From Puniceicoccales bacterium (lineage in GTDB: Bacteria > Verrucomicrobiota > Verrucomicrobiia > Opitutales > UBA953), in assembly GCA_031256995.1 (NCBI GenBank), contig JAIRPL010000022.1, positions 1-64,000 of the forward strand: 64,000 bases of DNA, in the 5' to 3' direction. Positions 33,286 through 52,580 of the stretch are shown one piece after another; the stretch's first letter is position 1; every line of letters starts with the position of its first letter. The notes beneath the pieces were generated by a model. That model ran no database searches, was not told the origin of the DNA, and saw nothing but the letters and a program-made list of their open reading frames with translations. Both the position numbers and the translations under genes were made by a program.

Positions 33286-33329
33286 TCCACCAATATCCCT
33301 AACCGGAGATCTGAAAAAACAAACAACCC

Positions 33330-33806
33330 ATGAGCACCAGGCTTTACCAACTCAACGCCCAAGACTGGTCGCCCGAGACTTTCCGCTACGAAATCTGGGA
33401 GGGCAAACCGTGGCATTGGCGCTACGGCAAGAAACTCGCCAAGGCCCTGCCTGAGACCGGCGACACCATCGTTTTATTCTACGCACCCAGCGGTTGCGAC
33501 GATCCCGGTTTCTACGGATGGGCCGTGCTCGAACGCTGTCACGCCGAGAGCCAGACGCTCTACTTCCTCCCCGCCACCCCGACCAACCACCTCAAAATGG
33601 ATCCGTGGTGGAACGAGGACGCCAAACGCCTCGTGGACGCCATCCGAGGCAAGATGACCCAAGCCACGCGTCGATACAAATTCCACCCGCCGCCTCCGCG
33701 CCGGCCTTCGTCGCTGGCTTGCCGGTTTATAGTTATGGTAATTTCACGCTCTGCCACTCAGCCATGTCTTACGATCCCTCTCCTTCCCTCAATCTCCTGC
33801 GCATAG
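33330..33806 (+). CDS. small EVE/PUA-like protein; C-terminal ~40 codons may be a non-coding read-through
   Basis: GDTIVLFYAPSG...GFYGWAVL resembles the EVE-domain motif GDxVxFYHS...IVGIAEV. Overlaps the RecQ start by 43 nt. Confidence 0.4.
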   Translation: MSTRLYQLNAQDWSPETFRYEIWEGKPWHWRYGKKLAKALPETGDTIVLFYAPSGCDDPGFYGWAVLERCHAESQTLYFLPATPTNHLKMDPWWNEDAKRLVDAIRGKMTQATRRYKFHPPPPRRPSSLACRFIVMVISRSATQPCLTIPLLPSISCA

Positions 33807-37182: not shown

Positions 37183-37199
37183 GATTCATCCTGAAGGAA

Positions 37200-38714: not shown

Positions 38715-41700
38715 ATGTCCATTCCCAGTCTGCATAACTCATCGGGCATCCGTGATAACCACCACCGGGGGACCGTGGGCGATTTCCTGCGGGCGGAGCT
38801 TCGCGCCGGGGCGGAGCTCGACATCGTCACCGCCTACTTCACGGTCTTCGCCTACGACAGGCTTCGCGCCCAGCTCGACAACCTCGGCCGCATCCGGCTC
38901 CTCTTCGGCGAGGCCGCGTTCATCCGCAACCTCGACCCCGGGCGCAAGGAGGGCGCGGCCTGCGTCCTTCGCGACGACGGGATCGCCCCCGCCTCCGGCC
39001 TCAACCAGCGCCACATCGCCCAGGCTTGCGCCGCCTGGATTCGCGACAAGGTCGAGGTCCGCTCCGTCACCCGCACCGGCTTCCTCCACGGCAAGATGTC
39101 CCACATCCGCCGGGGCGAGGTCTCCGCCGCCATCGTCGGCAGCTCCAACTTCACCACGCGCGGCCTGGGTCTCGGCGCGGCCAACAACAACGTCGAACTC
39201 AACCTCGTCGTCGACGGCAACCGCGACCGCGCCGACCTCCAGCAGTGGTTCGAGGAACTCTGGAACGACACCTCGCGCGTCGAGGACGTGAAACAGGCCG
39301 TCCTCGACTACCTGCTCCAGGTTTACCGCGACCAGCCGCCCGAGTTCATCTACTTCAAGACCCTCTTCGAGGTCTTCCGCCGCTTCATCGACGAAGGCCG
39401 CGACATCGAGGAAAGCCTGCGGCGCATCCGGCTCCCGGAGACCGGGATCTGGAACTCCCTCTTCGCCTTCCAGAAAGACGGGGCCAAATCCGCCATCAAC
39501 AAGCTCAAGACCCACGGCGGCTGCATCCTCGCCGACAGCGTGGGCCTGGGCAAAACCTACGAGGCGCTCGCCGTCATCAAATACTTCGAGCTGCGCAACG
39601 AGAAAGTCCTCGTCCTCTGCCCCAGCAAGCTGCGCGGCAACTGGGACCTCTATCCCGCCCACTGCGCCAGCAGGCACAATCCCTTCGCGGCCGACCGCTT
39701 CGGCTACACCGTCCTCGCCCACACCGACCTCTCGCGCGAAGGCGGCGCGTCCGGCGCGGTCCAGGAGCTTCGCGACTTCCACTGGGGGGCCTTCGATCTC
39801 GTCGTCATCGACGAGTCGCACAACTTCCGCAACAACACCCTCGGCAAGCCCCGCGAGGACGGCGCCGAACGCCGCAGCCGCTACCAGCGCCTCATGCAGG
39901 ACATCATCCAGTCCGGCGCGCGCACCAAGGTCCTCCTCCTCTCCGCCACCCCGGTGAACAACTCCCTCGCCGACCTGCGCAACCAGCTCTCGTTCATCGC
40001 GGGCGGCGATGTCGCGCGCGACACCCCGGAGGGCCTGGCCGCCGACGCGTTCTTCTCCGGCAATCTCGGGATCCCCTCGCTCAGGGCGACCACCCGCGAG
40101 GCCCGGAAACGCTTCACCGAGTGGTCCAAAAAACCCGTCGAACAGCGCCAGAAAAAAGACCTCATCCACGTCCTCGGCGGCGACTTCATCAGGCTGCTCG
40201 ACGCCATCACCATCGCCCGCTCCCGGAAACACGTCTCCCGGCACTACCAGGCCGAGATGGCCCGGCTCGGCGGGTTCCCGGCCCGCACGCCGCCGGTTTC
40301 CCTGCACCCCGGGATCGACACCGCCGGCGAGTTCCCGCCCTACGACGTGATCGCGGAAAAACTCGCGGAATACAAACTCTGGGTCTTCCGCCCGGCCGAG
40401 CACCTCCGCGCCACCCTCCCGCCGGCCACCGTCGAGCACTACACCCGGCGCATCGGCGGGTTCACACAGCAAGGCCGCGAGCGCATCCTCACCCACATGA
40501 TGCGCATCACGCTGCTGAAGCGCCTCGAAAGCTCCATCGACTCCTTCCGCCGCTCGCTGGTGACCACCTTGGACAAAATCGACCGCCTCGAACAGCGCAT
40601 GGCCGCGTTCGAGACCCGCCGCGACGCCAATCCCGATCTCGACTTCGAGGCGCTCGCCCCCGAGGACGTCGAGGACGACGACCCCGAGCTGGCCGCCGCG
40701 CTCGAAATCGGCCGCCGCGTCACCTTCAAGATGGCGCACCTGGACCTCGACGCCTGGCGCGCCCGCCTCGCCGAGGACCGCCGCCAGCTCAACGGCCTGC
40801 TCAAGCTCGCCGAACCCGTCACCCCGGCCCGCGACGCCAAGCTCGCCGAACTGCGCGCCCGCCTCGCCGCCAAGATCCAGAACCCGCCCCTCGACAAGGA
40901 CGGCCTCCCCAACCGCAAGGTGCTCGTCTTCACCGCCTACGCCGACACCGCCCGCTACCTTTACGACAACCTGCACCGCTGGCTGCGCGAGGACCTTGGC
41001 ATCCACGCCTCCCTCGTCGTCGGCAGCGGCCGGAATGCGTCCACCCTCACGCCCGGCTCCGATTACACCGCGATCCTGACCGACTTCGCCCCGCGCGCCA
41101 AACGCCGCGCCGGCGACCCCGCCGCGCCGCAGGTGGACGTGCTCATCGCCTCCGACTGCATCTCCGAGGGCCAGAACCTCCAGGACTGCGACACCGTCAT
41201 CAACTACGACATCCACTGGAACCCCGTCCGCATCATCCAGCGCTTCGGCCGCGTGGACCGCATCGGCTCCCGCGCCACCGCCGTCCACCTCGTCAACTTC
41301 TGGCCCACCGCCCACCTCGACCGCTACATCAACCTCAAGCAGCGCGTCGAGGCCCGCATGGCCCTCGTCGATCTCACCGCCACCCAGACCGACAACCCCC
41401 TCGACGAGAAACAACTCGAAGATCTCGTCACCACCGACCTCCGCCTGCGCGACCGCCAGCTCGAACGCATGCGCAAGGAGATCCTCGACCTCGAAGACCT
41501 GGAGGACTCGGTGACGCTCGCCGACTTCTCCCTCGACGACTTCCGCGCCGACCTCCTCCGCTTCCTGGAGCTCAACCGCGAGCAGCTCGAAAAAGCCCCC
41601 CCCGGCCTCCACGCCGTCGTCCCCGCCCGCGCCGACCTCCCGCTCACCGCCGGTGGCGGCATCATCTTCTGCCTCCGCCAGAAAGGCGCCGCCGCCGCCC

Positions 41701-42104
41701 GCCCCGCCACCGGGACGGAAAAAATCAACCCCCTCGCGCCCCACTACCTCGTTTACGTGCGCGCCGACGGCGAGGTGCGCCTCGCCTGCACCCAGGTCAA
41801 AACCATCCTCAGCCTCTTCCGCGAGCTTGCCCTCGGCAAAACCGAACCCTGCGCCGAACTCTGCCGCCTCTTTGACCGCGCCACCGCCAACGGCGCCGAC
41901 ATGGGCCACCCATCGCGCCTCATCCGCTCCGCCATCGAGTCCATCACCGCGACCTTCCAGCAAAAACTCGCCACAGGCCTGCAAACCAGCCGCCAGTTCA
42001 TCCTCCCCGCCGTCGAAGAGCAGCCCCGAGCCAACGAAACCGAATTCGAACTCGTCACCTGGCTGGTGATTCATTCCGAACCCGCCACTGCCGGCCTTGG
42101 GTGA
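38715..42104 (+). CDS. PLD-family nuclease domain (single HKD) fused to an SNF2-family helicase, 1129 aa
   Basis: HKD motif HGKMSHIRRGEVSAAIVGSSNFTTRGL; SNF2 motifs ILADSVGLGKT, VVIDESHNFRN, LLLSATPVNN, QRFGRVDRIGS. The last ~125 aa are duplicated at 43973-44340. Confidence 0.8.
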   Translation: MSIPSLHNSSGIRDNHHRGTVGDFLRAELRAGAELDIVTAYFTVFAYDRLRAQLDNLGRIRLLFGEAAFIRNLDPGRKEGAACVLRDDGIAPASGLNQRHIAQACAAWIRDKVEVRSVTRTGFLHGKMSHIRRGEVSAAIVGSSNFTTRGLGLGAANNNVELNLVVDGNRDRADLQQWFEELWNDTSRVEDVKQAVLDYLLQVYRDQPPEFIYFKTLFEVFRRFIDEGRDIEESLRRIRLPETGIWNSLFAFQKDGAKSAINKLKTHGGCILADSVGLGKTYEALAVIKYFELRNEKVLVLCPSKLRGNWDLYPAHCASRHNPFAADRFGYTVLAHTDLSREGGASGAVQELRDFHWGAFDLVVIDESHNFRNNTLGKPREDGAERRSRYQRLMQDIIQSGARTKVLLLSATPVNNSLADLRNQLSFIAGGDVARDTPEGLAADAFFSGNLGIPSLRATTREARKRFTEWSKKPVEQRQKKDLIHVLGGDFIRLLDAITIARSRKHVSRHYQAEMARLGGFPARTPPVSLHPGIDTAGEFPPYDVIAEKLAEYKLWVFRPAEHLRATLPPATVEHYTRRIGGFTQQGRERILTHMMRITLLKRLESSIDSFRRSLVTTLDKIDRLEQRMAAFETRRDANPDLDFEALAPEDVEDDDPELAAALEIGRRVTFKMAHLDLDAWRARLAEDRRQLNGLLKLAEPVTPARDAKLAELRARLAAKIQNPPLDKDGLPNRKVLVFTAYADTARYLYDNLHRWLREDLGIHASLVVGSGRNASTLTPGSDYTAILTDFAPRAKRRAGDPAAPQVDVLIASDCISEGQNLQDCDTVINYDIHWNPVRIIQRFGRVDRIGSRATAVHLVNFWPTAHLDRYINLKQRVEARMALVDLTATQTDNPLDEKQLEDLVTTDLRLRDRQLERMRKEILDLEDLEDSVTLADFSLDDFRADLLRFLELNREQLEKAPPGLHAVVPARADLPLTAGGGIIFCLRQKGAAAARPATGTEKINPLAPHYLVYVRADGEVRLACTQVKTILSLFRELALGKTEPCAELCRLFDRATANGADMGHPSRLIRSAIESITATFQQKLATGLQTSRQFILPAVEEQPRANETEFELVTWLVIHSEPATAGLG
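41703..42070. repeat. direct repeat D1 (~368 bp, ~97% identical to 43973-44340), encoding the C-terminal domain of the PLD::SNF2 protein
   Basis: Base-by-base comparison of the two segments shows only a handful of substitutions. Confidence 0.85.
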
Positions 42105-42213
42105 GCCTTTGGTCTAAAATTTAATAAGACGCATTTGACTTTATTCCTTGATTCTCAATCAATTATAAAACAACATTGTCTTAGGTAAAAACTTTTATAT
42201 TAGGAATTCCCCC

Positions 42214-43671
42214 ATGCGTTCCCCTTGGAGTTTCTACGGCCGTCGTGTCGAATTGAGCCAGTTGCAGGCCATTCTTGCCCGGCGTCGCTGGTTCTTTCTC
42301 CAGATATCCGGACGGCGGCGCATCGGCAAAACCACGCTCATTCAGGAGGCCTTGAGCGCCGAGCAACGCGCACGCACGCTCTACCTGCAAATTCCCGATT
42401 CCGATCCCGTTGGAGTTGTCGCCGCCTGTAACGGCTATCTGGAGACTTTTGGGCGGCCTGAGCGCGTGTCCGACCTGGGAGAACTCGCCCGGCTCGTGGC
42501 GCGTCTGGCCGAGGCCGGCCACATTGTGGCCATCGACGAATTCCAATATTTTCACCGCAAGCCGCTCGGTGACTTCTGCTCCCTGCTTCAGGCCGAGGTG
42601 GACCGCCTTGCCGCCCGCGCATCCGAAATCTCCGGCGGGCTTATTGTCCTCGGCTCCCTGCACGCGGAGATGACCGCCCTGTTGGAAAACCGCGATGCGC
42701 CGCTTTTTAATCGCACCACAGACCGGCTCGATCTTGGGCACCTGGACACCGCCTCGATTCTCGAAATCCTGCGAGTCCATGCCGACACCTCTCCACAACG
42801 CCTCCTCTTCCTCTGGAATCTCTTTGAGGGCGTGCCCAAATTCTACCGCGACGCCTACGAGCAGGACGTGCTTGGCGCGGAACGCCGCAAGCTCCTTCAG
42901 CGCCTTTTCTTCGCCAGCTCCTCGCCCCTGCGCGGCGAGGCCGACAACTGGTTCCTTCGCGAACTTCGCGGCCGCTACGACATGGTGCTCCAGCACCTGG
43001 CAAAGCATCCCGGCTGCACCAATGCCGAGATCGAGGCCGCCATCGCCCAGGTATCCCGGGCCGGGGAGACCAAGCAGATCGGCGGTTACCTGAAAATTCT
43101 CACCGAGCGTTACCGCATGATCGAGCGAAAGCTCCCCACCTTCTCCCCCGCCAAGGCGCGGAGCGGCCGCTACTACATTCGCGACAATTTCCTCCGCGCC
43201 TGGCTCTCCGCCCTCCAGCGCCCCGTCTCCGCCACCGCCTTCCGCCCCCTGGAGGAACTCATCACCCAGGCCGACGAGCGCCTCGCCACGGTCGAAGGCC
43301 ACGCCCTGGAGGCCCTCGCCGGCCAGCTCTACGAAGAACGCAGCCGCCTCGGCCTCGGCGATTTCCCGCTGAGTGACCGCATCCACGGCTACTGGGATCG
43401 CGGCGACGTCGAGATCGACCTGGTGGCCGTTTCCGAGCCTGGACAACGCATCCGTTTCGGCACCTGCCGCCGCAACCCGGAAAAACTCCTCTCCTCCCTC
43501 GACAGCCTGCGCTCCGGGGCCGGGTCATTCATCCAGGCCCAGGGACGCTTCCGCGGCTGGAGGTGCGAGTTCGTCGCCATCGCGCCGGAAATCGCCCCGG
43601 ATCTCCGCCACCGCCTGCAACAAGCCGGCGTCATCGCCCAGGACCTGCACGACCTCACCGCCGGCCTCTGA
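42214..43671 (+). CDS. AAA+ ATPase (archaeal-ATPase-like) with a DUF234-like C-terminal domain (predicted PD-(D/E)xK-like)
   Basis: FYGRRVELSQL...FFLQISGRRRIGKTTL (P-loop); Walker B VAIDEFQY; C-terminal DVEIDLVAVSEPGQRIRFGTCRRNPEK. Preceded by a ~110-bp AT-rich promoter-like spacer. Confidence 0.75.
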   Translation: MRSPWSFYGRRVELSQLQAILARRRWFFLQISGRRRIGKTTLIQEALSAEQRARTLYLQIPDSDPVGVVAACNGYLETFGRPERVSDLGELARLVARLAEAGHIVAIDEFQYFHRKPLGDFCSLLQAEVDRLAARASEISGGLIVLGSLHAEMTALLENRDAPLFNRTTDRLDLGHLDTASILEILRVHADTSPQRLLFLWNLFEGVPKFYRDAYEQDVLGAERRKLLQRLFFASSSPLRGEADNWFLRELRGRYDMVLQHLAKHPGCTNAEIEAAIAQVSRAGETKQIGGYLKILTERYRMIERKLPTFSPAKARSGRYYIRDNFLRAWLSALQRPVSATAFRPLEELITQADERLATVEGHALEALAGQLYEERSRLGLGDFPLSDRIHGYWDRGDVEIDLVAVSEPGQRIRFGTCRRNPEKLLSSLDSLRSGAGSFIQAQGRFRGWRCEFVAIAPEIAPDLRHRLQQAGVIAQDLHDLTAGL

Positions 43672-43867
43672 TATCGGGTTGACGCGCGCACCGCGCCAGC
43701 GCCCCTATTGTTCAGAAGACCTCACCGCCGGCCTCTGGCATCCCATCCGCCTCAACCATCCCATCCGCCTCGACCATCCGCCTCATGCCCGAAACCCTCC
43801 ATTCCTCCCTCCGGTCCGCCCTCGCCGCCTTCAACGGCCAACCCCTGCGCGAGGCCGCCCTCGGTTT
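43653..43867. repeat. direct repeat R1 (~215 bp), near-identical to R2 at 46348-46558
   Basis: Starts inside the last codons (…LTAGL*) of the upstream gene. Contains two internal copies of CCTCACCGCCGGCCTCTG and the ATG plus first 29 codons MPETLHSSLRSALAAFNGQPLREAALGFF. Confidence 0.85.
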
Positions 43868-44372
43868 CTTCAAAACGCTCGGCTATTCCAGCCAGCGCAC
43901 GGTCATCGTCCCCAAGTCCGCCCCGCGCACCTTTCTCGGCCTCTTCGCCAAAAACGCTGGCGCCGCCCGCCCCACCACCGGGACGGAAAAAATCAACCCC
44001 CTCGCGCCCCACTACCTCGTTTACGTGCGCGCCGACGGCGAGGTGCGCCTCGCCTGCACCCAGGTCAAAACCATCCTCGGCCTCTTCCGCGAGCTTGCCC
44101 TCGGCAAAACCGAACCCTGCGCCGAACTCTGCCGCCTCTTCGACCGCGCCACCGCCAACGGCGCCGACATGGGCCACCCGTCGCGCCTCATCCGCTCCGC
44201 CATCGAGTCCATCACCGCGACCTTCCAGCAAAAACTCGCCACAGGCCTGCAAACCAGCCGCCAGTTCATCCTCCCCGCCGTCGAAGAGCAGCCCCGCGCC
44301 AACGAAACCGAATTCGCCCTTGTCACCTGGTTGGTGTTGCACCCGTCCGCAGGCCAGGCTTCCACCACGTAA
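43785..44372 (+). pseudogene. chimeric 195-aa ORF: MTase-like N-terminus (from R1) joined in frame to a paralogue of the SNF2 C-terminal domain (D2); probable recombination junction
   Basis: First 29 aa identical to the MTase start; next ~20 aa weakly MTase-like; then FLGLFAKNAGAARPTTGTEKINPL onward is ~97% identical to the SNF2 C-terminus. Confidence 0.5.
43973..44340. repeat. direct repeat D2, the copy of D1
   Basis: See D1. Confidence 0.85.
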
Positions 44373-44398
44373 ACCCCCGCACGCCTTTCTCCTCCTCC

Positions 44399-45886
44399 AT
44401 GCCCGCCGCCATTCCGCGCTCCTCCATCTTTGTGAGTTCCGTCCAGAAGGAACTCCAGGCAGAACGCCGCGCGCTCAAGGACTATGTGCACGGCGATCCG
44501 CTCTTGTCGCAATTTTTCGAAGTCTTCCTGTTCGAGGATGTCCCCGTGTCCGGCCGGCGCGCCGACCAAGTTTATCTCGCCGAGGTGGATCGCTGCGATC
44601 TCTACCTCGGGCTTTTCGGACAGGAATACGGTTGCGAGGACACCGAGGGCATCTCACCCACCGAGCGCGAGTTCGACCGCGCGGGCGCCGCCGGAAAAGA
44701 CCGCCGCATCTGGGTGCTCGGCGCCGACGCCACCCGCCACCCGAGGATGCAGGCCCTCGTTCGCAAGGCCGGCGACCAGGTCGTCCGCCGGCGTGCCGCC
44801 TCCATCGACGATCTAAAGTCCGCCGTCTACGCCAGCCTCGTCGAACACCTCTCCCGCCAAGGCATCATCCAGTCCGGCCCCTTCGAGGATGGCCCCTGCG
44901 TCACCGCCCACGCCACAGCGACCGAGGCCGACCTCTCCCCCGAAGCCGTCGCCGCCTTTGTCCGCCACGCCCGCGCTGCGCGCCAGTTTCCCCTGCCGGA
45001 AAACACACCCGTCGCCAACATCCTTGCCCACCTGCACTTGCTCGCTGGCGACACGTCGTCGCGCGCCGCCGTGCTGCTCTTCGGCCGCGACCCCATCCGC
45101 TGGCTGCCCTCTGCCGAGATTCGCTGCATGCACTTCCACGGCACCGAGGTCGCCCGCCCCGTGCCGCTCTACCAGATTTTCAGGGGCACCGTCCTCGAGC
45201 AGGTGGACCTCGCCACCAATTTCGTGCTCAGCGTCATCAACCGCAGCGTCGGCACCCGCGCCCTGAGCAACGCCGCCCCCGTCGCCTACGAGATCCCGCC
45301 CGACGTCGTGCGCGAGGCCATCGTCAACGCCGTCGCCCATCGCGACTACGCGTCCGCCGCCGCCATCCAAGTCTCCGTCTTTGCCGACCGGATCGAGATT
45401 CGCAACCCCGGCGGTCTGCGCCCGCCCCTCACCCCGGAAAAACTCCGCTTCCCGCACACTTCGATTGCGCGCAACGCCCACCTCTGCGACGCGCTTTTCC
45501 TTGCCCGCTACATCGAGAAATTCGGCACCGGCACCCTCATGATGATCCGCGAGAGCCGCGCCCACGCCCTTGCCGAGCCCGATTTCGCCACCGATTCCGG
45601 GGAATTCGTCCTTACTCTCTGGCGCGACCTCTATACAACAATCCACCTCGCTGGTCTCGGGCTTAACGACCGCCAGCTTGCAGCCATCACTTGGGTGAAA
45701 ACCCATGGTCGCATCACCAACGCGGAATTCCAGACCCATTTCAGCGCGGCCAAACGCACGGCATCCCAGGATTTATCCGCGCTCGTTGCGGCGGGCGTAT
45801 TCGAGAAACAGGGCACGACCGGCAAAGGCGTTTTCTACCGACTAAACAAAGGGGCACCAAAGGGGCATAAGGGGCATTCCACATGA
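44399..45886 (+). CDS. DUF4062-like N-terminal domain plus AlbA_2 (Schlafen-like) and HATPase_c_4 domains; putative defence or regulatory protein
   Basis: N-terminus SIFVSSVQKELQAERRALKDYV...VFLFEDVPVS...CDLYLGLFGQEYG (DUF4062-like, TIR-like pattern). Middle ENTPVANILAHLHLLAGDTSSRAAVLLFGRDP (AlbA_2-like). C-terminus VNAVAHRDYASAAAIQVSVFADRIEIRNPGGL (HATPase_c_4-like). Confidence 0.7.
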   Translation: MPAAIPRSSIFVSSVQKELQAERRALKDYVHGDPLLSQFFEVFLFEDVPVSGRRADQVYLAEVDRCDLYLGLFGQEYGCEDTEGISPTEREFDRAGAAGKDRRIWVLGADATRHPRMQALVRKAGDQVVRRRAASIDDLKSAVYASLVEHLSRQGIIQSGPFEDGPCVTAHATATEADLSPEAVAAFVRHARAARQFPLPENTPVANILAHLHLLAGDTSSRAAVLLFGRDPIRWLPSAEIRCMHFHGTEVARPVPLYQIFRGTVLEQVDLATNFVLSVINRSVGTRALSNAAPVAYEIPPDVVREAIVNAVAHRDYASAAAIQVSVFADRIEIRNPGGLRPPLTPEKLRFPHTSIARNAHLCDALFLARYIEKFGTGTLMMIRESRAHALAEPDFATDSGEFVLTLWRDLYTTIHLAGLGLNDRQLAAITWVKTHGRITNAEFQTHFSAAKRTASQDLSALVAAGVFEKQGTTGKGVFYRLNKGAPKGHKGHST

Positions 45887-46072
45887 TCACTCTGCCAAAG
45901 GAGCCAAAGGGGCCAGACGTATGACTATGTGTCCATCGTCTCATGCCGGCCACAAAGGGGCCAAGCGGCACTCATCACCAGAACCGCCTTGCCTCAAACG
46001 GTTTCGGCATGGGCTTGGCGCCCGGCTCCGTTTCGCATCGCCCCCTCACCTCCGCAAGTTACCCAGCAAGCC

Positions 46073-46366
46073 ACCATGCAAGATAAGCCATTGGTAAATG
46101 ATGCCTTGTTTGAGTTGGCTGCCGCCTTGGACGTCCCTGCCACGCGAGTCACCCAGCAAGCCGCCGGGCAAGCCGCCAACCTGCTCCAAGCGGCCATCGA
46201 ATCCGCCACCCGGGAAAACCTGCAGGAGGCGATGAACTTGCAAGACCGCAGGCACTTCCGCCAAATCTGCCCCGAACCGCAGTTCAAGCCCGGTTGGCCT
46301 GAACGCACCATCCCCGGCAAGCCCACCAGTCCCCGCCAGCGCCACCGCCTCACCGCCGGCCTCTGA
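46073..46366 (+). CDS. small hypothetical ORF (~97 aa) ending inside repeat R2
   Basis: ORF in cargo position; ends …RHRLTAGL*, the same tail as the AAA-DUF234 gene because of the repeat edge. Coding status uncertain. Confidence 0.3.
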   Translation, partial: TMQDKPLVNDALFELAAALDVPATRVTQQAAGQAANLLQAAIESATRENLQEAMNLQDRRHFRQICPEPQFKPGWPERTIPGKPTSPRQRHRLTAGL

Positions 46367-46558
46367 TATGGTTGACGCGCGCACCGCGAGAGTGCCCCTA
46401 TTGTTCAGACGACCTCACCGCCGGCCTCTGGCATCCCATCCGCCTCAACCATCCATCCGCCTCGACCATCCGCCTCATGCCCGAAACCCTCCATTCCTCC
46501 CTCCGGTCCGCCCTCGCCGCCTTCAACGGCCAACCCCTGCGCGAGGCCGCCCTCGGTT
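46348..46558. repeat. direct repeat R2 (copy of R1), carrying the start of the giant MTase gene
   Basis: See R1; offset between copies is 2695 bp. Confidence 0.85.
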
Positions 46559-49500
46559 TTTTCGGCGCCTGTGGCTACCGCAGCGCCCGCGTTCTCCCGA
46601 TCAACTCGCTCGCCGAATTGCGTGCCCGCTTCGACACTGATGGTCTTCTCACGGAGGCCAACGCGGCTCTCTCCCGCTGGCGCTCCATCCATTTCCTCTT
46701 CCAGCTCACCGACGCCGAACTGCGCACCGCGACCGAGGGCGCTCTTGATCTCGACATTGCCGAACCCTACGAGACCAAGGATATCCGTTCCTACCTCTTC
46801 TTTGCGCTCGATCTTGAGGCCCGGCCCGACGGTTTGCCGACCACCCGTAAGGAGCTTTCCGAGATTACTCGTGCACTCAACCGCCTTGTCCCCCAGCCGA
46901 TCCTCGTCCTCTTCCGTTGCGGAGACCTCCTTTCGCTCGCGATCATCAACCGCCGAAAAAACCTTCGTGATGGCACCCGCGATGTCCTCACTCGCGTCTC
47001 CCTGATCCGCGACATCGCACCCGTTGCACCCCATCGCGCCCACCTCGACCTCCTCGGGCGTTTCTCGCTGCGACAGCTCCGCACTCATGGCGACGAAATT
47101 CGGACTTTTACCCAGCTCGACAACGCATGGCAAAAGCTCTTCTCCATCCAGGAACTCAAGGACTCCTTCTATCGCGACCTCGTCACATGGTTCCGCTGGG
47201 CTGCCGCCGAGATCAAACTCGCCCGATTGCCTGACCACACTCCCGATGACATCGCACACCGCGCTCGCGCCACGCAGGAATTCACTGTCCGCCTGATCTG
47301 CCGAACCCTCTTTGCGTGGTTTCTCAAAGAAATGCGGCTCATCCCCGCTGAACTGCTGGAGCTTTACACAATCACCGATCAGCGCCGCGTGCTCACTCGT
47401 GCGCCCTACGATCCCGAGTCCAATCACTACTATCGAGGCGTCCTCCAAAACATTTTCTTCCAAGCGCTCAACCGTCCCATGGACCAGCGGCGCAAGACGG
47501 GACCCGCCGCTGCCCAAGACCGCACCGTCACCCGCGCCGAACTCAAGCAACTCGCCTACCTCGGTAAAAATCACCTGCCCGAGACCTTCGATTACGATCT
47601 GTTTGACCGCATCCCTTATCTCAACGGTGGTCTCTTCGACGCCCTCCCCGAGGACAACGCCTCCGACACCATAGACGATGGAGCCCTGCGCGTTCCCGAC
47701 AAACTCTTCTACGCCACGGCTGCGGACGGCTTTGCCATCGAAGTCGGCGGAAAAAAGAAGGCCAAATACTCCACCGAAGGCCTCAACCGCATCCTCGACC
47801 GCTATCGCTTCACCGTCGCCGAAAACACTCCGCTGGAAGAGGACGTCGCCCTCGACCCCGAGTTGCTCGGCCTCGTTTTCGAAAACCTTCTCGCTGAGAT
47901 CGATCCCGACGACAAAGCCGCCGCCGAGTCCGCGCGCAAGGCATCCGGCTCCTACTATACTCCGCGACGCATCGTGGACTACATGGTCAACGAGGCGCTC
48001 CACCTCCATCTGCGAACTCGTTTTGAGCAAATCGGCGCCACCCGGGACGATCTCCAGCTCCTCGCCCACCTCTGCTTCGAGTCCGGCGAAGACCTCGACT
48101 TTTCGCCCATTGCCGGACGTGTCGTGGACATTCTCGAATCCACTCGCGTGCTCGACCCCGCCTGTGGCTCCGGAGCATTCCCGATGGGCATGCTCCACCG
48201 CATGGTCACGCTCCTCGGCCGCGTGGACCCTGACAATGCACGCTGGAAACAACGCCTCCTCGACCGCCTGCCCGCTCCCATGCGCGACGACGCCAGCCGT
48301 GGCATGGAAGGCAAAAGCTACGATTACCTGCGCAAACTCGGCGTCATCCAGAAGAACCTCTACGGCGTGGACATCCAACCCCTCGCCGCTCTGATCGCCA
48401 AACTCCGTTTCTTCCTCACCCTCGTCATCGAGCAAGACGTTCAGCTCGCCGACCGCGCCCACAACTACGGCCTGCAATCCCTGCCCAACCTTGAGACCAA
48501 TCTTGTCTGCGCGAACACCCTGTGCAACGCCGAGCACGACCTTCTGGCCGGTCCCACACTGGAAAACCTCCGACGCATCCGCGAGGAATACTATCAACCC
48601 GGCACTCCTCGTGAACGCCGCGACGCCCTCGCTCTCGAAATCGGCGGCCAGCTCGCCACCCTCTTTCCCGGTTTCGCCGAGAAAACCAAGGGTATCCACT
48701 CAGCCAATGCCCAGATGCGCTACGAACAAGACCGGCAATGGCTCGCCGAGTGGTTCAAACACGCGACCGTCGCCGCCCCCTTCTTTAACGTCGAAACCTT
48801 CTTTCCCGAGTTGGTCGGCGAGGGTGCTAATCGCCATCCCGCGCCCTTCCACATCGTGATCGGCAATCCACCCTACGGCGGCACAAAAATCGGCGAAGAA
48901 CTGCAGGAGCAGCTTGGTCTCGGCTCCAAAGATCCCTACGGCGCTTTCATCGCTCGTTTTCTTGGCGACCCCGCCCGACCCAGTCCACTCGCCGAGGGCG
49001 GCGTGCTCGCCTACATCGTCAGCGACACCTTCATGACCATCAAGGCGCACCGCCCTCTGCGCGAGCAGATGCTCCGCCACCGCGTCCACAAGATGATCCG
49101 GGTTGCCGGCGACACCTTCAAAGCCACCGTCAACTGCGCCGTCATTCTCACCCAGCGCGGCCCGTCGACGGCCGACCATACCTGCCAGATGGCCGACCTC
49201 ACCAACGTCTCCATTCACGACCGCTTCGAGTATTTCCTCCACCTGCTGTATCAAACCGAAGGCACCGGCCCCATCAGCCGTCGGCAAAATGTCTCCAACC
49301 AAACCTACGCTATCTACCACTACCGCCAGAGCCTCATCACGACCAACAGCAACCTCCCCTTCTTCGTCGCTTCACCCAAGCTCTTCGCACTGATGAACGA
49401 CACCAGCGCACCGGTGTCGCATGAAATCATCAGCGGAAAACGTGTGCCTGTGCGCACCATCACACTCAACGGCAATGCGGTGCGATTGGTGAAGCTAAGG

Positions 49501-51138
49501 GACATCGCAGAGGTTAAGGTTGGTCTGCAAACCGGCGATAACGATACCTACCTTTTTCAGAATCCAGACGCACGCGGATCCTACCGATCTATCGAGGATT
49601 ACCGGCAATATTTACTGAACGAACATGACCTAGAGCGCATTCGATCCGACGAGTCCCTGCGTCGTGAGGTCGTCCATCATGGGATTTCAAAGGACAATCG
49701 TCGTTCGTCTCGTTATTTTGGCGGCCGCTATATCGTGCCTTACGACAAGGGTGGCGAATCCGACTCTGACGAAGGCTGGATGCCAAACTATTGGGTTCCG
49801 ACCAATTATTTCATAGATTGGAGTGAGTTGGCAGTAAACCGGATGAAGACTCTGACGACCCGCGAAAGAAATCGTTCGCGCGGAGAAAACGGAGGCAACG
49901 ACTCGATTGCATCGCGGTTTCAGAACGCCGATTCCTATTTTACCAAAGGCATCACTTTTTCGATGCGAGGCGTTTACTCGCCGACGTTTCGCTTCGCCGA
50001 GTCGAACCCATTCGATGTGATGAGCTCGAAACTCTTCGCATCTGCGGGCGCATCGTTGGACGAATTGCTAGCCTGGCTCGCGTCGCGACTCGGAAAGTTC
50101 GTGATGAAGAATTATCTGGAGCACACGGTTGCGTTCGACGTCGACGCATTGAAAGAAGTGCCGATTCGGTTTTGTCCAACCGAGGCTCAGGAAGCAGCCA
50201 AACTCGTGAATCGAGTGATGGAGATGCAGCGCCGGAATCCGCGTTACGACTACGCCAGCAGCGAGCAGCTCGAAATCGACCGCCTCGTCTATGCGGCCTA
50301 CGGATTGAATGAAACGGACATCCGCGAAGTCGAGGACTGGTATGCTCGTCGCTACCCCAAACTCGCGAAGGCGCAGAAGGAAAACCTTGCGGCCAAACTC
50401 GGCCAAACCGTCGACCAGCTTGCGCCGCCCCGCGTTGTTCATCTCTACTGCGACGAAAGCCGCCACCTCCCCCACGACCGCGAGTCGCACATGCTCCTCG
50501 GCCTCGTCTCCTGCCCCGCCGACAAGGTCCGCGCCAGTCATCTGGAACTACGTGATCTTGCCCGCCGTCACGGTCTTACAGACGACTACGAAATGAAATG
50601 GACGCATGTCCGCCCCGGCAAACTGCCCTTCTACGAAGCCGTGATAGATTGGTTCTTCGCCCGCGACTATCTTTCCTTCCGCGCGCTTCTGCTGCCCGAC
50701 AAGCACGAGGTTTATCAGCGCCTGCCCGAAGACAGCCAGGACATCGCCTATTACCGCCTCTACGCCCAGCTTCTGCTCGCCGCCATGGAGCCGGAAAATC
50801 GCCATCGCGCCTTTATAGACCAAAAGGACACCCGCGGCGGCCACAAGATCGACGAGGTGCAAAAGATGCTGCGTTTCGCCCGCAACGACGCTGATGGCCA
50901 GACTGTCCAGAGCCTGCAACAAATCCAGAGCCACGAAGCCAGACTGCTCCAGCTCACCGATGTCCTTCTCGGCGCCTTGGGTGCCGCCCGTCTCGGGCGA
51001 ACACTCCCGCCCCCCAAGCAAGCCTTGGTCAGCAAAATCGCCGCCGCCATTGGCAGCCCATTGGTATGGGACACTGCCGGGTTTTCGCGGAAATTCGCCA
51101 TCTCCACCTTCCACGACATCGACAGCCTCGTCTCATGA
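46477..51138 (+). CDS. 1553-aa gamma-class N6-adenine DNA methyltransferase (PglX/DrmMI/type IIG-like) with a ~430-aa N-terminal region of unknown function and a C-terminal DUF3800-like domain
   Basis: GSYYTPRRIVDYMV; motif I VLDPACGSGAFP; motif IV IVIGNPPYGG; C-terminal HLYCDESRHLPHDRESHMLLGLV (DUF3800-like DES motif). Confidence 0.85.
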   Translation: MPETLHSSLRSALAAFNGQPLREAALGFFGACGYRSARVLPINSLAELRARFDTDGLLTEANAALSRWRSIHFLFQLTDAELRTATEGALDLDIAEPYETKDIRSYLFFALDLEARPDGLPTTRKELSEITRALNRLVPQPILVLFRCGDLLSLAIINRRKNLRDGTRDVLTRVSLIRDIAPVAPHRAHLDLLGRFSLRQLRTHGDEIRTFTQLDNAWQKLFSIQELKDSFYRDLVTWFRWAAAEIKLARLPDHTPDDIAHRARATQEFTVRLICRTLFAWFLKEMRLIPAELLELYTITDQRRVLTRAPYDPESNHYYRGVLQNIFFQALNRPMDQRRKTGPAAAQDRTVTRAELKQLAYLGKNHLPETFDYDLFDRIPYLNGGLFDALPEDNASDTIDDGALRVPDKLFYATAADGFAIEVGGKKKAKYSTEGLNRILDRYRFTVAENTPLEEDVALDPELLGLVFENLLAEIDPDDKAAAESARKASGSYYTPRRIVDYMVNEALHLHLRTRFEQIGATRDDLQLLAHLCFESGEDLDFSPIAGRVVDILESTRVLDPACGSGAFPMGMLHRMVTLLGRVDPDNARWKQRLLDRLPAPMRDDASRGMEGKSYDYLRKLGVIQKNLYGVDIQPLAALIAKLRFFLTLVIEQDVQLADRAHNYGLQSLPNLETNLVCANTLCNAEHDLLAGPTLENLRRIREEYYQPGTPRERRDALALEIGGQLATLFPGFAEKTKGIHSANAQMRYEQDRQWLAEWFKHATVAAPFFNVETFFPELVGEGANRHPAPFHIVIGNPPYGGTKIGEELQEQLGLGSKDPYGAFIARFLGDPARPSPLAEGGVLAYIVSDTFMTIKAHRPLREQMLRHRVHKMIRVAGDTFKATVNCAVILTQRGPSTADHTCQMADLTNVSIHDRFEYFLHLLYQTEGTGPISRRQNVSNQTYAIYHYRQSLITTNSNLPFFVASPKLFALMNDTSAPVSHEIISGKRVPVRTITLNGNAVRLVKLRDIAEVKVGLQTGDNDTYLFQNPDARGSYRSIEDYRQYLLNEHDLERIRSDESLRREVVHHGISKDNRRSSRYFGGRYIVPYDKGGESDSDEGWMPNYWVPTNYFIDWSELAVNRMKTLTTRERNRSRGENGGNDSIASRFQNADSYFTKGITFSMRGVYSPTFRFAESNPFDVMSSKLFASAGASLDELLAWLASRLGKFVMKNYLEHTVAFDVDALKEVPIRFCPTEAQEAAKLVNRVMEMQRRNPRYDYASSEQLEIDRLVYAAYGLNETDIREVEDWYARRYPKLAKAQKENLAAKLGQTVDQLAPPRVVHLYCDESRHLPHDRESHMLLGLVSCPADKVRASHLELRDLARRHGLTDDYEMKWTHVRPGKLPFYEAVIDWFFARDYLSFRALLLPDKHEVYQRLPEDSQDIAYYRLYAQLLLAAMEPENRHRAFIDQKDTRGGHKIDEVQKMLRFARNDADGQTVQSLQQIQSHEARLLQLTDVLLGALGAARLGRTLPPPKQALVSKIAAAIGSPLVWDTAGFSRKFAISTFHDIDSLVS

Positions 51139-51635
51139 GTACCGCAACTTGGCTTCCAGCCCGATTGGACCGGGCCGATTATTCTGACGACGACGCTCTC
51201 GAAGCCGCCGCGTGGATCGCCTTCCAAAGGGACTTTGCCACCGCCCCAACCTTCCGCTCCGAACGCGTCAACATCAACCGCCAACCCCACCCGGCACGCT
51301 CCGACCGACACCACAGTTATTGGCACTCCGTGACCGAAGGTCAGCCCGAGCACACTCGCACTACGCCTGAATTAGAGCGCTTGGAGCGTATTCCTTGGGC
51401 TCGACCGGTGATCGAGAACGAAGCCTGTCCTCACTCCTCAATCAAAGTCTGGAGCAACCAACGGAACGGCAACACTCATGTCTGCATCTGGTTTGACCAA
51501 ATCAATTACCTTATCGTGCTCAAGCGGCTCACAACGAACTATCTCCTGAAAACCACCTACAGCCCGGAACCCCAACGCCACCAGCAGCTTCACAAGGAAT
51601 ACGCCCGTTGGAAAAAAAGCGGGGCGCGGCTGTGA
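51135..51635 (+). CDS. hypothetical 166-aa protein translationally coupled to the MTase
   Basis: ATG overlaps the MTase stop (ATGA at 51135-51138). His/Cys/Trp-rich (HHSYWHS, CPHSS, HVCIWF); no family recognised. Confidence 0.45.
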   Translation: MSTATWLPARLDRADYSDDDALEAAAWIAFQRDFATAPTFRSERVNINRQPHPARSDRHHSYWHSVTEGQPEHTRTTPELERLERIPWARPVIENEACPHSSIKVWSNQRNGNTHVCIWFDQINYLIVLKRLTTNYLLKTTYSPEPQRHQQLHKEYARWKKSGARL

Positions 51636-52151
51636 ACCGCGCCCTAATGCACCTTCCACATGAGGTGGATGCGACCCGGGCATCCTCGCGCAACCGGAGT
51701 CGAGTGCAAGCAAAACCTGAAAAACAATGAAGCCTCCGCCGCGGCGGAAGCCTGGCTCCTTTCGCACATGGTGAATGAGTTGGAGAGGTTGTCGTCCAAT
51801 TTCGGAAAAAGTGAAGCCCCCAATCGCATGCAGCGTTGGCTCATCAAGTTCGTCCCCTTTCGTACCACATAAAACGGCATCGCCCGCACTAGGACCTTCA
51901 CCTTGCGAGACGTGCGCAGTTCGGAGGCTCGTCGGCAGTGACAGATTATCCAGCTCGCATAAACTGCATGCCTTGCGAGGTGCGCGGTTCGCCGACACCG
52001 AGCTGTTTGAGCGGCCGTTTCCCGGAGAACGGGCCAGGGCACTGGGCATCCGCAACAATTTCACTTCTCCCGTCAAGGTGCCTGAAAGGGCATTTGCCGA
52101 AATCCACCGGCACGGCATGAAACTGTCCGTTTCGTCCTGAACACCTCCCGC

Positions 52152-52580
52152 ATGCCCAGTTTGACCCGCATAACACTTCCAACCGCCGCACGATGGACTC
52201 CCGCGCTCCAATCCCTGCCCGCGCTCGCCATCCGGCAGCCTTACGCGTGGCTGGTGGTCAACGGAATCAAGGACATCGAAAACCGCTCCCGCCGGACCCA
52301 CCACCGGGGAAAAGTGCTGATCCATGCCTCGCTAAATGAGGACCTGCTTTTCGACGACTCCCTGGCCGCGCTGAGCATCCGCGCCGGCATCGAGCTGCCC
52401 GAGTCCTACGACATCGGCGGGATAGTCGGCGTCGCCGAGATCGTCGGCTGCGAACGCCGCCACGAGTCCGACTGGAAAAATCCGTCGAGCTGGGGCTGGG
52501 TCCTGGCCAATGCGCGGCCCTTGCCGTTCCGGCCCTGCAAGGGGGCGCTCGGATTTTTCCGCCCCAAGTTCGCCGATTGA
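52152..52580 (+). CDS. ASCH-domain (PUA-like) protein
   Basis: IRQPYAWLVVNGIKDIENRSRRTHHRGKVLIHAS is the ASCH core motif; 142 aa. Confidence 0.7.
   Translation: MPSLTRITLPTAARWTPALQSLPALAIRQPYAWLVVNGIKDIENRSRRTHHRGKVLIHASLNEDLLFDDSLAALSIRAGIELPESYDIGGIVGVAEIVGCERRHESDWKNPSSWGWVLANARPLPFRPCKGALGFFRPKFAD

Follow-up and report, generated by a model that had tools for sequence, protein, structure and literature searches.

A PLD-Snf2 fusion and an MmeI-type adenine methylase as the core of a candidate restriction-modification-like defence operon with a DUF3800 add-on

Results

With a probability of roughly two in three, the locus described here is a conserved ATP-dependent restriction-modification-like defence operon, most resembling a split Type I/III/ISP-like system. 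By its gene content it is a member of a widespread, unnamed family of candidate restriction-modification-like defence systems; our literature search found no experiment on any member of the PLD::Snf2/methylase family. The window (the whole stretch of 64,000 nucleotides that was analysed) stems from a metagenome-assembled genome and is a defence island: a Type I restriction-modification remnant, a helicase+DUF2290 pair and PsyrTA are found immediately upstream of the locus. The initial annotation had placed the genes, their domains, the ATGA coupling and the repeats correctly. The main genes and domains are:

38715..42104, + strand: PLD (HKD) nuclease fused to Snf2 translocase, 1129 aa (Pfam, PADLOC)
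46477-51138, + strand: methylase::DUF3800 ORF, 1553 aa (Pfam)
46477..47466, + strand: family-specific N-terminal methylase domain, alpha/beta (aa 1-185) and helical (aa 187-330)
47863..50406, + strand: gamma-class N6-adenine methyltransferase core, followed by the variable C-terminal region (Pfam, PADLOC)
50407..51138, + strand: DUF3800 (RNase-H-like) domain at the methylase C terminus (Pfam; PADLOC PDC-M04A)
51135..51635, + strand: 166-aa partner ORF, ATGA-coupled (PADLOC PDC-M04B)

Gene linkage supports an operon family. Of the 61 related loci with sufficient flanking sequence, 57 have a PLD(HKD)::Snf2 gene immediately upstream of an MmeI/Eco57I-type N6-adenine methylase and on the same strand, a pairing that spans many phyla; the same order at so many independent loci is far above chance. 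The initial annotation had made its proposal depend on such a co-occurrence of the two large genes, a check that the proposal thereby survives. The spacing between the Snf2 stop and the methylase start codon is -11 to +76 nt in about half of the loci, many of them overlapping, and the methylase N-terminal domain is present in 1354 representatives (50% identity clusters). A clean operon order (Snf2, one cargo gene, methylase::DUF3800, 166-aa gene, EVE) is found in the close relatives L080-L083. Here, PLD::Snf2 and methylase are set apart by 4.4 kb of cargo and a 590-nt gap, and their co-transcription is therefore doubtful.

The PLD::Snf2 protein comprises PLDc_2 (residues 31-183), SNF2-rel_dom (from residue 253) and Helicase_C (732-851) and matches the PADLOC model 'HKD+Snf2' C3a139 with an E-value of 4.5e-113. 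Its single HxK...GSSN motif (H125, K127, G142-N145) is invariant across 21 homologues, as are the Snf2 motifs GLGKT, DESH, SATP and QRxGRxxR. This protein (HGKMSHIR) lacks the aspartate found in classical HxKxxxxD motifs, so that only H, K and GSSN are conserved. Among solved structures, the nearest relatives of the motor are the chromatin remodellers SWR1, SNF2 and CHD1L as well as bacterial RapA. PLD::Snf2 is predicted to be the restriction subunit, combining motor and nuclease.

In the methylase, Pfam detects Eco57I (626-875), MmeI_Mtase, N6_Mtase and DUF3800 (1322-1502). Motif I (VLDPACGSGAF) and motif IV (NPPY) are invariant in the 11 full-length homologues, and the top matches are of Type IIG (PADLOC REase_MTase_IIG, E 1e-40). 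Similarity of the C-terminal part to PglX/BrxX structures is weak (E 1e-10); residues 1001-1310 are only 35-73% identical, compared to 67-90% for the core, and this variable region presumably is the target-recognition domain. The N-terminal 430 residues, which the initial annotation had left unexplained, turned out to hold the family-defining domain. It structurally resembles MmeI, PglX and HsdM, as does its helical part, and its alpha/beta part sits where MmeI has its endonuclease domain. No catalytic residues, D..ExK included, are conserved there, which fits a delegation of cleavage to the PLD-Snf2 partner.

A cargo slot of 4.4 kb separates the two core genes. Two unrelated cargo genes and a chimeric ORF, together with repeats, are found within it:

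42214..43671, + strand: cargo gene 1, AAA ATPase with DUF234, PDC-S27 candidate (PADLOC, Pfam)
43655..43875, + strand: repeat of the methylase upstream region and first ~30 codons (partner copy 46344-46568)
43785..44372, + strand: chimeric ORF, 195 aa (DNA alignments)
43927..44338, + strand: repeat of the Snf2 3' end (partner copy 41659-~42070)
44402..45886, + strand: cargo gene 2, DUF4062 and HATPase_c_4 (RecG-C-like) with a C-terminal HTH (Pfam)

Cargo gene 1 matches PADLOC PDLC04985 over its full length (E 1.4e-225; Pfam AAA_22, ATPase_2, DUF234). As none of the 79 related loci has a counterpart, it does not belong to the core. Homologues of cargo gene 2 occupy the same slot at L005, L016, L041, L057 and L059, and other related loci carry a DUF1016/YhcG nuclease, a PIN toxin-antitoxin pair, Abi_2, KilA-N, ORF6N or AlbA_2-HATPase_c_4 there. 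Cargo of these kinds is characteristic of loci for Type I RM, BREX and Hma (compare Payne et al. 2024). About 58 N-terminal residues of the chimeric ORF derive from a methylase allele, with residues 30-47 (LGYSSQRTVIVPKS) matching the family consensus; the Snf2 protein supplied the C-terminal part of about 137 residues. The relatives L080-L083 have no counterpart. The methylase repeat is 95-99% identical to its partner copy and the Snf2 repeat 94-99%. Judged by these alignments, chimeric ORF and repeats are a scar left by duplication or recombination and therefore give no evidence for the joint function of the core genes that had initially been read from them. The duplicated junctions could in principle include an assembly error; against this speak the divergence of 1-6% between the copies and the unique 70-nt joint.

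The DUF3800 tail matches PADLOC PDLC04353 (PDC-M04A, E 1.2e-56), and in all 11 full-length homologues its D1326-E1327-S1328 and Q1492xxD1495 are kept without change. The 166-aa ORF, whose ATG overlaps the methylase stop as ATGA, matches PDC-M04B (E 9e-38) and has 57 homologues, nearly all of them also of 166 aa. The description of this ORF as His/Cys-rich applies to histidine (9 residues) and not to cysteine (2 residues only). Fold matches tentatively assign a RelE/colicin-D-like (BECR) fold to the protein. This third candidate component of the initial annotation is a real partner of the tail, being present at every DUF3800-bearing locus with downstream flank. Most members of the PLD::Snf2/methylase family, however, lack tail and ORF alike: the methylase::DUF3800 fusion is a rare sub-branch, and of the three-component set proposed before, the two-gene core stands while the remainder is an add-on. 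On the evidence of the profiles, tail and ORF are a separable module, already catalogued as the candidate PDC-M04.

Past position 51635 the operon goes on with a non-coding element, which is conserved, and with an EVE pseudogene:

51616..51680, - strand: two-hairpin element, type 1, over the last codons of the 166-aa ORF (alignment, pair counts)
51727..51795, - strand: variant second copy of the element (type 2), carrying the 3'-end remnant of another M04B allele
51828..51941, + strand: EVE-domain gene remnant, pseudogene, MQRWLIKFVPFRTT*NGIARTRTFTLRDVRSSEARRQ* (tblastn)

The decayed EVE gene and the conserved RNA-like hairpin element had both been overlooked in the initial annotation. In alignment A6, 92.6% of the cells of the element are paired, against 29-44% when the alignment is slid, and compensatory changes occur at 10 of 16 pairs. 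G.U pairs favour the minus strand (21 vs 6), on which terminator-like matches lie at 51644-51622 (type 1 copy) and 51753-51730 (type 2 copy). The element probably is a small antisense RNA of the minus strand with an intrinsic terminator at its end; an association of DUF3800 genes with terminator-ended structured RNAs is known (PMC5737381). Fold z-scores are -5.2 and -5.5 for relatives, -2.4 for the type 1 copy and -1.0 for the type 2 copy at this locus; the type 1 copy here is weakened. The EVE remnant is 56-63% identical to residues ~8-43 of intact EVE genes, and its reading frame is interrupted by a TAA at 51870. At 29 loci and at L080-L083, the operon is followed by an intact EVE gene (Pfam EVE, E 1e-28 to 1e-36). 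A stand-alone EVE gene, a predicted reader of modified bases, is the last gene in most family members and a pseudogene here.

Discussion

The systems closest in logic are the Type I, Type III and Type ISP (LlaGI/LlaBIII) enzymes, in which likewise a nuclease-bearing SF2 motor works together with an N6-adenine methylase that has a specificity region of its own. Discrimination of self and non-self by methylation, for the present locus deduced from its genes, and cleavage that probably needs two motors or nucleases are further likenesses, and Type I loci embed the same cargo genes. The differences are that the motor is here a true Snf2-family ATPase, that the nuclease is of the PLD/HKD instead of the PD-(D/E)xK type, and that a single MmeI-like chain combines M and S, giving two polypeptides compared to three in Type I and one in Type ISP. 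In contrast to the MmeI-family Type IIL/IIG enzymes (PDB 5hr4) and the Cj0031-like Type IIG enzymes, a conserved catalytic D..ExK is lacking in the N-terminal domain and the methylase is nearly always accompanied by a separate PLD-Snf2 gene. Milman et al. 2023 (PMC9881135) mentioned this pairing, though only briefly.

Domain content, conserved catalytic motifs, gene linkage and the modular distribution of the add-ons are observed; from this sequence evidence we infer every biochemical step of the following mechanism. The core would consist of the MmeI/Eco57I-type gamma-class N6-adenine methylase and the single-HKD PLD::Snf2 double-stranded DNA translocase. Host recognition sites would be marked by the methylase; on incoming unmethylated DNA, the methylase would bind its site and recruit or license the Snf2 motor, which would then translocate driven by ATP. 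Since a single chain supplies only half of a PLD active site, cutting would require two nuclease domains to come together, by dimerisation or by the collision of two motors, which would parallel Nuc/BfiI-type PLD nucleases and Type I/III/ISP enzymes. Particular to this lineage are the capture of the DUF3800 domain by the methylase, along with the translationally coupled 166-aa protein, and the hairpin element over the end of the small gene.

Possible, though doubtful, is that DUF3800 tail and 166-aa protein form an independent embedded defence or toxin-antitoxin module, fused only for co-inheritance and co-expression and without cross-talk. PADLOC models PDC-M04 as two stand-alone genes (A profile 232 aa, B profile 162 aa), most family members do without the module, and embedding without cross-talk is common (Payne et al. 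2024). As in PDC-M04, a DUF3800 protein and a small partner are adjacent, coupled and strongly matched; component A, however, is here the C-terminal domain of a 1553-aa methylase and not a free protein of ~230 aa, and PDC systems are 'guilt-by-embedding' predictions (Payne et al. 2024). A covalent link to the methylase exceeds mere embedding, and the fusion is stable, occurring in more than 120 clusters of 52-79% identity from several phyla; the ATGA coupling is retained as well.

Rather unlikely is a second alternative, in which the locus of this genome is a decaying mosaic, a non-working sink of defence fragments, while the family may function elsewhere. The EVE pseudogene, the tandem remnants of two M04B 3' ends, the poorly folding element copies, the chimeric scar ORF and the 4.4-kb interruption of the core pair would all suit it, and the adjoining Type I system is degraded too (truncated hsdM, only a 147-aa N-terminal fragment of HsdR). 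However, all three long ORFs (1129, 1553 and 166 aa) are unbroken and retain the conserved catalytic residues in full, and the cargo genes are intact as well.

We regard as unlikely a Type IV-like or dual system, in which EVE would steer PLD-Snf2 to modified phage DNA and the methylase would only protect self. The frequent EVE gene at the operon end speaks for it, and exactly such a dual logic was proposed by Bell et al. 2020 (PMC7641849) for DUF499 systems with Snf2-nuclease and EVE. These BREX-related systems (DUF499-centred, Type-2 BR; Hma is Type-1 BR; PMC12839542) likewise have an HKD nuclease N-terminal on a Swi2/Snf2 helicase and an N6 methylase, and stand-alone EVE proteins are frequently found with them (PMC12839542, PMC7641849). 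Our locus differs in lacking the DUF499 ATPase and DUF3780 and in its Eco57I/MmeI-type methylase, theirs being COG1743 (Bell et al. 2020, PMC7641849); the PADLOC HmaA model gives only 78 bits. Moreover, EVE is a pseudogene here, yet both large genes are intact, an ABC/SMC-like ATPase replaces EVE in one distant clade, and the coupling to this separate small gene is inferred.

A minimal or reduced DISARM, acting like DISARM with Snf2 as DrmD, the methylase as DrmMI and the fused PLD as DrmC, is very improbable. Snf2, PLD and an Eco57I-type N6A methylase do occur together in DISARM class 1 (DrmD Snf2, DrmMI, DrmA, DrmB, DrmC PLD), and DrmD models are the second-best PADLOC and NCBIfam matches. 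But the defining DrmA/DrmB (DUF1998) are missing from the whole window and from related operons, which largely refutes this reading, and the PLD is fused to Snf2. The NCBIfam DrmD model reaches 163 bits where its cut-off demands 610, the PADLOC DrmMI model 35.6 bits (E 6e-10) over ~160 residues, and the methylase is closest to Type IIG with an MmeI/PglX-like N-terminal domain. The label 'minimal DISARM-like' has therefore been dropped, with DrmD, DrmMI and PglX models far under their cut-offs and a logic closer to Type I/III/ISP; the view of a restriction-type system that is neither canonical DISARM nor BREX holds, as none of DrmA/B, PglZ, BrxC and DUF499 is encoded in the 64-kb window. Least probable of all is a BREX-like exclusion blocking phage replication without DNA cleavage, with the methylase as PglX and Snf2 as a BrxH-type helicase, given that PglZ, BrxC, BrxA, BrxB and BrxL are all absent, that NCBIfam PglX models stay at or below 85 bits against cut-offs of 400-900, and that the conserved PLD catalytic residues point to cleavage.

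Returning to the restriction-modification-like operon with its add-on, the DUF3800 and 166-aa pair may represent a second-layer effector tethered to the methylase. The precedent is PrrC, which is held latent by the Type Ic enzyme EcoprrI (discussed in Payne et al. 2024). The analogy is functional only, a putative RNase-type effector attached to an RM methylase/specificity component, and there is no homology: PrrC is a non-covalently bound, ABC-ATPase-type anticodon nuclease, whereas at the present locus a DUF3800 domain is fused to the methylase and accompanied by a putative antisense RNA and a protein that may be RelE/colicin-D-like. By this analogy, an effector attached to the RM methylase would suit firing upon RM inhibition, a putative guard role.

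Gene content of the block

The initial annotation had described three genes, a PLD-Snf2 fusion, an adenine methylase with a DUF3800-like tail and a coupled small ORF, as a candidate minimal DISARM-like or novel restriction-type system. The genes and their domains were confirmed as reported and all three are present, but the interval that they span holds more than three genes.

Genes of the block (coordinates, strand, product)
38715-42104, +, PLD::Snf2 protein, 1129 aa, one PLD/HKD domain (PLDc_2, residues 31-183) followed by a complete Snf2 ATPase
42214-43671, +, AAA ATPase with DUF234, 485 aa (AAA_22/ATPase_2; PADLOC PDC-S27, PDLC04985, E 1.4e-225, residues 4-484 of 485)
43785-44372, +, ORF of 195 aa
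44402-45886, +, DUF4062 and HATPase_c_4 protein, 494 aa (domain match), followed by a gap of 590 nt before the methylase gene
46477-51138, +, Eco57I/MmeI-type N6-adenine methylase core with C-terminal DUF3800, 1553 aa (domain match)
51135-51635, +, ORF of 166 aa, its own ATG overlapping the methylase stop as ATGA

The window derives from a metagenome-assembled genome (MAG) of Puniceicoccales (Verrucomicrobiota), and the homology search returned a 100% identical methylase protein, likewise from a Puniceicoccales MAG. By domain scan, the sole PLD domain is the N-terminal fusion on the Snf2 protein. As judged from alignments, the catalytic residues of the core pair look intact: H125, K127, G142-S-S-N145, GLGKT, DESH, SATP and QRxGRxxR of the Snf2 protein are invariant or nearly so among 21 homologues, and VLDPACGSGAF, NPPY, D1326-E-S and Q1492xxD of the methylase are invariant among 11 full-length homologues.

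Linkage of the core pair and size of the family

The two large genes form a unit, and the repeats that they share are not the reason for saying so. In the linkage survey, 11 diverse full-length methylase homologues were aligned, one genome per species was scanned and all window proteins were then located in the 79 loci returned. The PLD-Snf2 gene lies directly upstream on the same strand in 57 of the 61 loci with at least 3.5 kb of upstream sequence; at one further locus it is also upstream, separated from the methylase by a second methylase copy. The co-occurrence suggested by the initial annotation as a check was thereby upheld, and it extends across Verrucomicrobiota, Planctomycetota, Lentisphaerota, Bacteroidota, Cyanobacteria, Chloroflexota, Bacillota, Spirochaetota, Nitrospirota, Thermodesulfobacteriota and Campylobacterota, with the pairing persisting down to 27-35% identity. 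In about half of the loci the distance from the Snf2 stop to the methylase start is -11 to +76 nt, and overlap is frequent.

At the sequence level, the family is recognised by methylase residues 1-330. An exhaustive search of 1.84 billion representatives gave 1354 matches to them at E ≤1e-3 and 778 at ≤1e-10, always at the protein N terminus and mostly in proteins of 1.2-1.37 kaa. Around 1,350 clusters at 50% identity, from many phyla, thus carry the family domain.

Single loci depart from the usual arrangement. On a Longimicrobiales chromosome (L051, OZ251577.1, 9992-15419) a single PLD-Snf2 gene is followed by two methylase-family ORFs in tandem. In Desulfobacterium sp. (L037, 9992-21019) the methylase homologue is an ORF of 3675 aa with no Snf2 gene upstream; the methylase domain is its sole recognisable part, and the remainder may be masked or unknown sequence. 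PLD-Snf2 homologues of about 39% identity were also found on plasmids of Raoultella (L084, NZ_CP114775.1) and Desulforapulum (L085, NC_012109.1), in an operon of WYL or HTH, PLD-Snf2, DUF4391, an optional ATPase and another DNA methylase, with a DEAD helicase in the Raoultella copy. As this is a different operon, these homologues are no direct guide to the system in the window; they indicate that the motor-nuclease partners several kinds of methylase.

Relation to known restriction and defence systems

The system is widespread, catalogued piecemeal and unnamed. PADLOC and NCBIfam offer generic Type IIG and Snf2 labels: the best PADLOC models are a generic "HKD+Snf2" cluster for the Snf2 protein and "Type IIG" for the methylase, and none of the five proteins reaches a curated NCBIfam cut-off. 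In print, we found the Snf2-methylase pairing mentioned only once, as a table entry of Milman et al. (PMC9881135), and no paper in the literature searched names or tests PDC-M04 or an HKD+Snf2+methylase, DUF3800+methylase or EVE+SNF2 system.

Like the MmeI-like Type IIL/IIG enzymes, the methylase is a gamma N6A enzyme of the Eco57I/MmeI type with a helical domain and a target-recognition region. Those enzymes, however, carry an active PD-(D/E)xK endonuclease at the N terminus of the same chain, and such a domain is not found here. The N-terminal 430 aa, initially described as unexplained, hold the family signature, and an AlphaFold model of residues 1-460 (pLDDT 85.7) divides them into an alpha/beta domain (about 1-185) and a helical domain (about 187-330). 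The alpha/beta part occupies the position of the MmeI endonuclease. Fold comparison returned no clear structural match for residues 1-185, no acidic-lysine (D..ExK) triad is conserved among 25 family members, and the methylase N-terminal region has no nuclease Pfam match. An active MmeI-type nuclease at this position is ruled out by the missing conserved triad and the lack of a clear fold match. We read the alpha/beta domain, from model and alignment, as non-catalytic and possibly a former nuclease, which would fit cleavage being supplied by the PLD-Snf2 partner.

Among related loci, the region 3' of the catalytic core varies more than the core itself (35-73% versus 67-90% identity), the pattern expected of exchanged or swappable target-recognition domains. 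Methylase residues 1001-1310 (49477-50406) have 35-37% identity to three homologues (L013, L014, L023), whose cores are 67-74% identical.

With the DUF499-centred, BREX-related BR/Hma systems our block shares an HKD nuclease N-terminal to a Swi2/Snf2 helicase, a feature that alone does not define a family. A 2026 survey of BREX-related systems (PMC12839542), which places Hma in the same group, reported the HKD::Snf2 effector always alongside a DUF499 ATPase. Neither DUF499 nor DUF3780 was found among the window ORFs scanned or in L080-L083, four close relatives with a clean operon. The sole ATPase in the block besides the core is the PDC-S27 protein (AAA_22/ATPase_2 with DUF234), and it is absent from all related loci.

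For DISARM, the Snf2 protein scores 163 bits against a cut-off of 610 with the NCBIfam model DISARM_DrmD and 107 against 950 with DrmD_b, and the PADLOC DrmMI model matches the methylase at E 6e-10 (35.6 bits). DISARM class 1 has a separate PLD nuclease, DrmC, whereas here the PLD domain is fused to the Snf2 protein. Pfam or PADLOC detected no DUF1998, DrmA or DrmB among the ORFs of 26-61 kb and 0.7-19 kb or in L080-L083. For BREX, the results were 84.6 bits against a cut-off of 500 for BREX_1_MTaseX, at most 42 bits for the other PglX models, a PglX likeness confined to the C-terminal region of the methylase, and no PglZ or BrxC among the window ORFs scanned or in L080-L083. Among the NCBIfam models, those for DrmD and PglX stay far under their cut-offs, as does that for the single-gene PLD anti-phage helicase. 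The absence of DrmA/DrmB (DUF1998), PglZ and BrxC, on which the initial annotation had relied, therefore holds in the ORFs scanned. What stands of its proposal is a restriction-type system with a two-gene unit; the minimal DISARM label and two of the arguments were wrong.

The DUF3800 tail, the 166-aa protein and a probable convergent RNA

The DUF3800 tail matches PADLOC PDC-M04A (PDLC04353, E 1.2e-56, methylase residues 1321-1545) and the 166-aa ORF matches PDC-M04B over its full length (PDLC04357, E 8.6e-38). The two PDC-M04 components thus adjoin on one strand, with A being fused and not free. DUF3800 has been published as RNase-H-like and recurs in defence contexts, for example retron type VII and the accessory genes of Cas12a3/Cas13. 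Most family members have neither the DUF3800 tail nor the small gene, and the small gene is present in every DUF3800-tailed locus with enough downstream sequence, usually with stop/start overlap. The methylase::DUF3800 fusion was found in more than 120 clusters at 52-79% identity, labelled by NCBI only as "DUF3800 domain-containing protein"; by this sequence distribution, the fused form is stable. The small protein had been called His/Cys-rich. It contains only 2 Cys and has an alpha/beta fold in the model, which rules out a Zn-binding or His/Cys-rich protein.

Downstream of the small gene lies a conserved non-coding element of two sequence types, followed by remnants and neighbours of the system.

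Features downstream of the methylase (coordinates, strand, description)
51616-51680, -, element type 1, right after the stop codon region of the small ORF
51727-51795, -, element type 2, the second sequence type
51828-51941, +, EVE pseudogene, about 38 codons recognisable, in-frame TAA, then truncated
52152-52580, +, intact ASCH-domain ORF, 142 aa

Type 1 occurs also in eight related loci (L002, L003, L005, L011, L012, L014, L018, L080) and type 2 in six (L004, L008, L009, L015, L023, L081). Both have an identical two-hairpin fold: among 16 sequences, 92.6% of cells pair versus 29-44% with the partners slid, and compensatory changes occur at 10 of the 16 pairs. For 25 distinct sequences, pairing on the minus strand is obtained in 386 of 400 cells versus 371 of 400 on the other strand, with G.U counts of 21 versus 6. 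The minus-strand fold gives z values of -5.2 and -5.5 in relatives, the window copies being weaker (-2.4 and -1.0). Hairpin 1 overlaps the small gene's final codons, is followed by U7 on the minus strand and makes up the region's two best terminator-like matches. The G.U asymmetry and the U7 tract point to a minus-strand RNA of about 65 nt with its terminator over the last codons of the ORF. Rfam, including its DUF3800 motifs, gave no match to the element, whether at the gathering threshold or with E relaxed to 1. A metagenome scan with an 18-nt core was of little use as a search, with mostly chance matches inside coding DNA; 11 of 120 were real, each adjoining an M04B 3' end.

Weinberg et al. 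2017 (PMC5737381) described structured RNA motifs that neighbour DUF3800 genes, eleven in number, unrelated and in several cases with terminators, and the element may be a new DUF3800-associated RNA motif. By speculative analogy, a small convergent RNA that covers the 3' end of a gene with possible toxicity brings to mind 3'-overlapping antisense antitoxins. Extending this, DUF3800, a possibly RelE/colicin-D-like 166-aa protein and the convergent antisense RNA of about 65 nt, with its terminator overlapping the small gene's last codons, might constitute an RNA-controlled toxin module that is covalently tethered to the methylase and is triggered by phage inactivation of the restriction complex, whereupon it degrades RNA and halts growth. 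We consider this unlikely, at perhaps one chance in seven. If true, it would provide a function for the DUF3800-associated structured RNAs, unexplained since 2017, and a new, three-component kind of guard of restriction-modification (RM) systems.

In L081-L083 and L001 (e.g. L081, 10609-10760) the element order is reversed relative to the window, type 2 preceding type 1, and what is left of a second M04B 3' end separates the two. This arrangement suggests that alleles of the small gene were exchanged through recombination at the elements. A remnant locus on a metagenome contig (L193, FWPU01007671.1, oriented about 11370-12035) comprises the last codons of M04B, the element and an intact EVE gene, with methylase and Snf2 gene absent upstream.

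Cargo between the core genes and origin of the repeats

Where the core genes are not adjacent, 0.4-2 kb separate them, with one or two same-strand genes from a recurring set. DUF4062 or AlbA_2 with HATPase_c_4 was found in six loci including the window, and a DUF1016/YhcG nuclease in six; other cargo comprises PIN toxin-antitoxin pairs, HSDR_N-like proteins, KilA-N, ORF6N, a polyvalent-protein kinase and Abi_2. In this the slot resembles the sites at which Type I RM, BREX and Hma loci embed cargo. Such "embedding" of cargo was described for Type I RM, BREX, DISARM and Hma by Payne et al. 2024, and PDC candidates including S27 and M04 are predictions derived from it.

The slot in the window is doubly filled, and the 195-aa ORF sits between its two cargo genes. 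About 58 of its first residues correspond to the methylase N terminus and the last 137 or so to the Snf2 C terminus; residues 30-58 stem from a diverged methylase allele, and at the DNA level the flanking repeats are 94-99% identical to the resident genes. Such a head-to-tail junction would be the expected leftover of a tandem duplication of the segment tail-slot-head, and deletion between two tandem alleles would leave an identical junction. The 195-aa ORF has no counterpart in the close relatives L080-L083 (73-77% identity), whose slot contains just one cargo gene. The repeats noted in the initial annotation do exist; given the chimeric junction and its absence from close relatives, they are a scar of duplication or recombination and not, as had been argued, evidence of co-function.

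Flanks and genomic neighbourhood

A stand-alone EVE gene (Pfam E 1e-28 to 1e-36) was found in 29 loci and in L080-L083, directly 3' of the methylase in the unfused clade and of the small ORF in the fused clade. It is the last gene of the operon in most relatives. In a distant clade (L055, L058-L060, L062, L064, L066, L072, L075-L077) it is replaced by an ABC/SMC-like ATPase of 457-603 aa (AAA_23, SMC_N) with stop/start overlap with the methylase. The ASCH-domain ORF was considered as an EVE replacement and ruled out: L001, L082 and L083 have the final 28 of its codons (93% identity) downstream of the system as well, so it is a neighbouring gene and not a part of the system, and probably represents native sequence flanking an insertion site that these loci share.

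The system lies in a defence island with housekeeping genes on its borders. The island includes a degraded Type I RM locus (28165-37679, +), which retains a 5'-truncated hsdM, hsdS and two embedded systems, a helicase+DUF2290 pair (PADLOC) and PsyrT/PsyrA (RecQ-like and DprA-like). An HsdR N-terminal fragment of 147 aa just before the Snf2 gene is the sole HsdR left; the Snf2-methylase block may have displaced hsdR. The system is itself partly eroded in the window.

Proposed mechanism and significance

In the mechanism that we propose, the methylase-specificity subunit would mark self DNA and recognise unmodified sites, the Snf2 motor would translocate, and two single-HKD domains would combine to cut. 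Where intact, EVE may add recognition of modified DNA (compare PMC7641849), and the module of DUF3800, M04B and RNA would be a tethered second layer. If the core pair works in this way, it would represent a distinct and common ATP-dependent class of restriction, combining a Snf2 motor, a PLD nuclease and an MmeI-like methylase-specificity subunit. MmeI-like enzymes have a predictable and engineerable specificity, and a motor-coupled version could therefore be a useful tool.

Because of its cargo slot, the family is another place in which to look for new defence genes. Fusion, small protein and RNA-like element together offer a testable handle on the roles of DUF3800 proteins and their associated RNAs, and on the way in which second-layer effectors are connected to restriction systems. 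The importance of the system lies mainly in a large family awaiting study and in its module of methylase::DUF3800 fusion, small protein and RNA.
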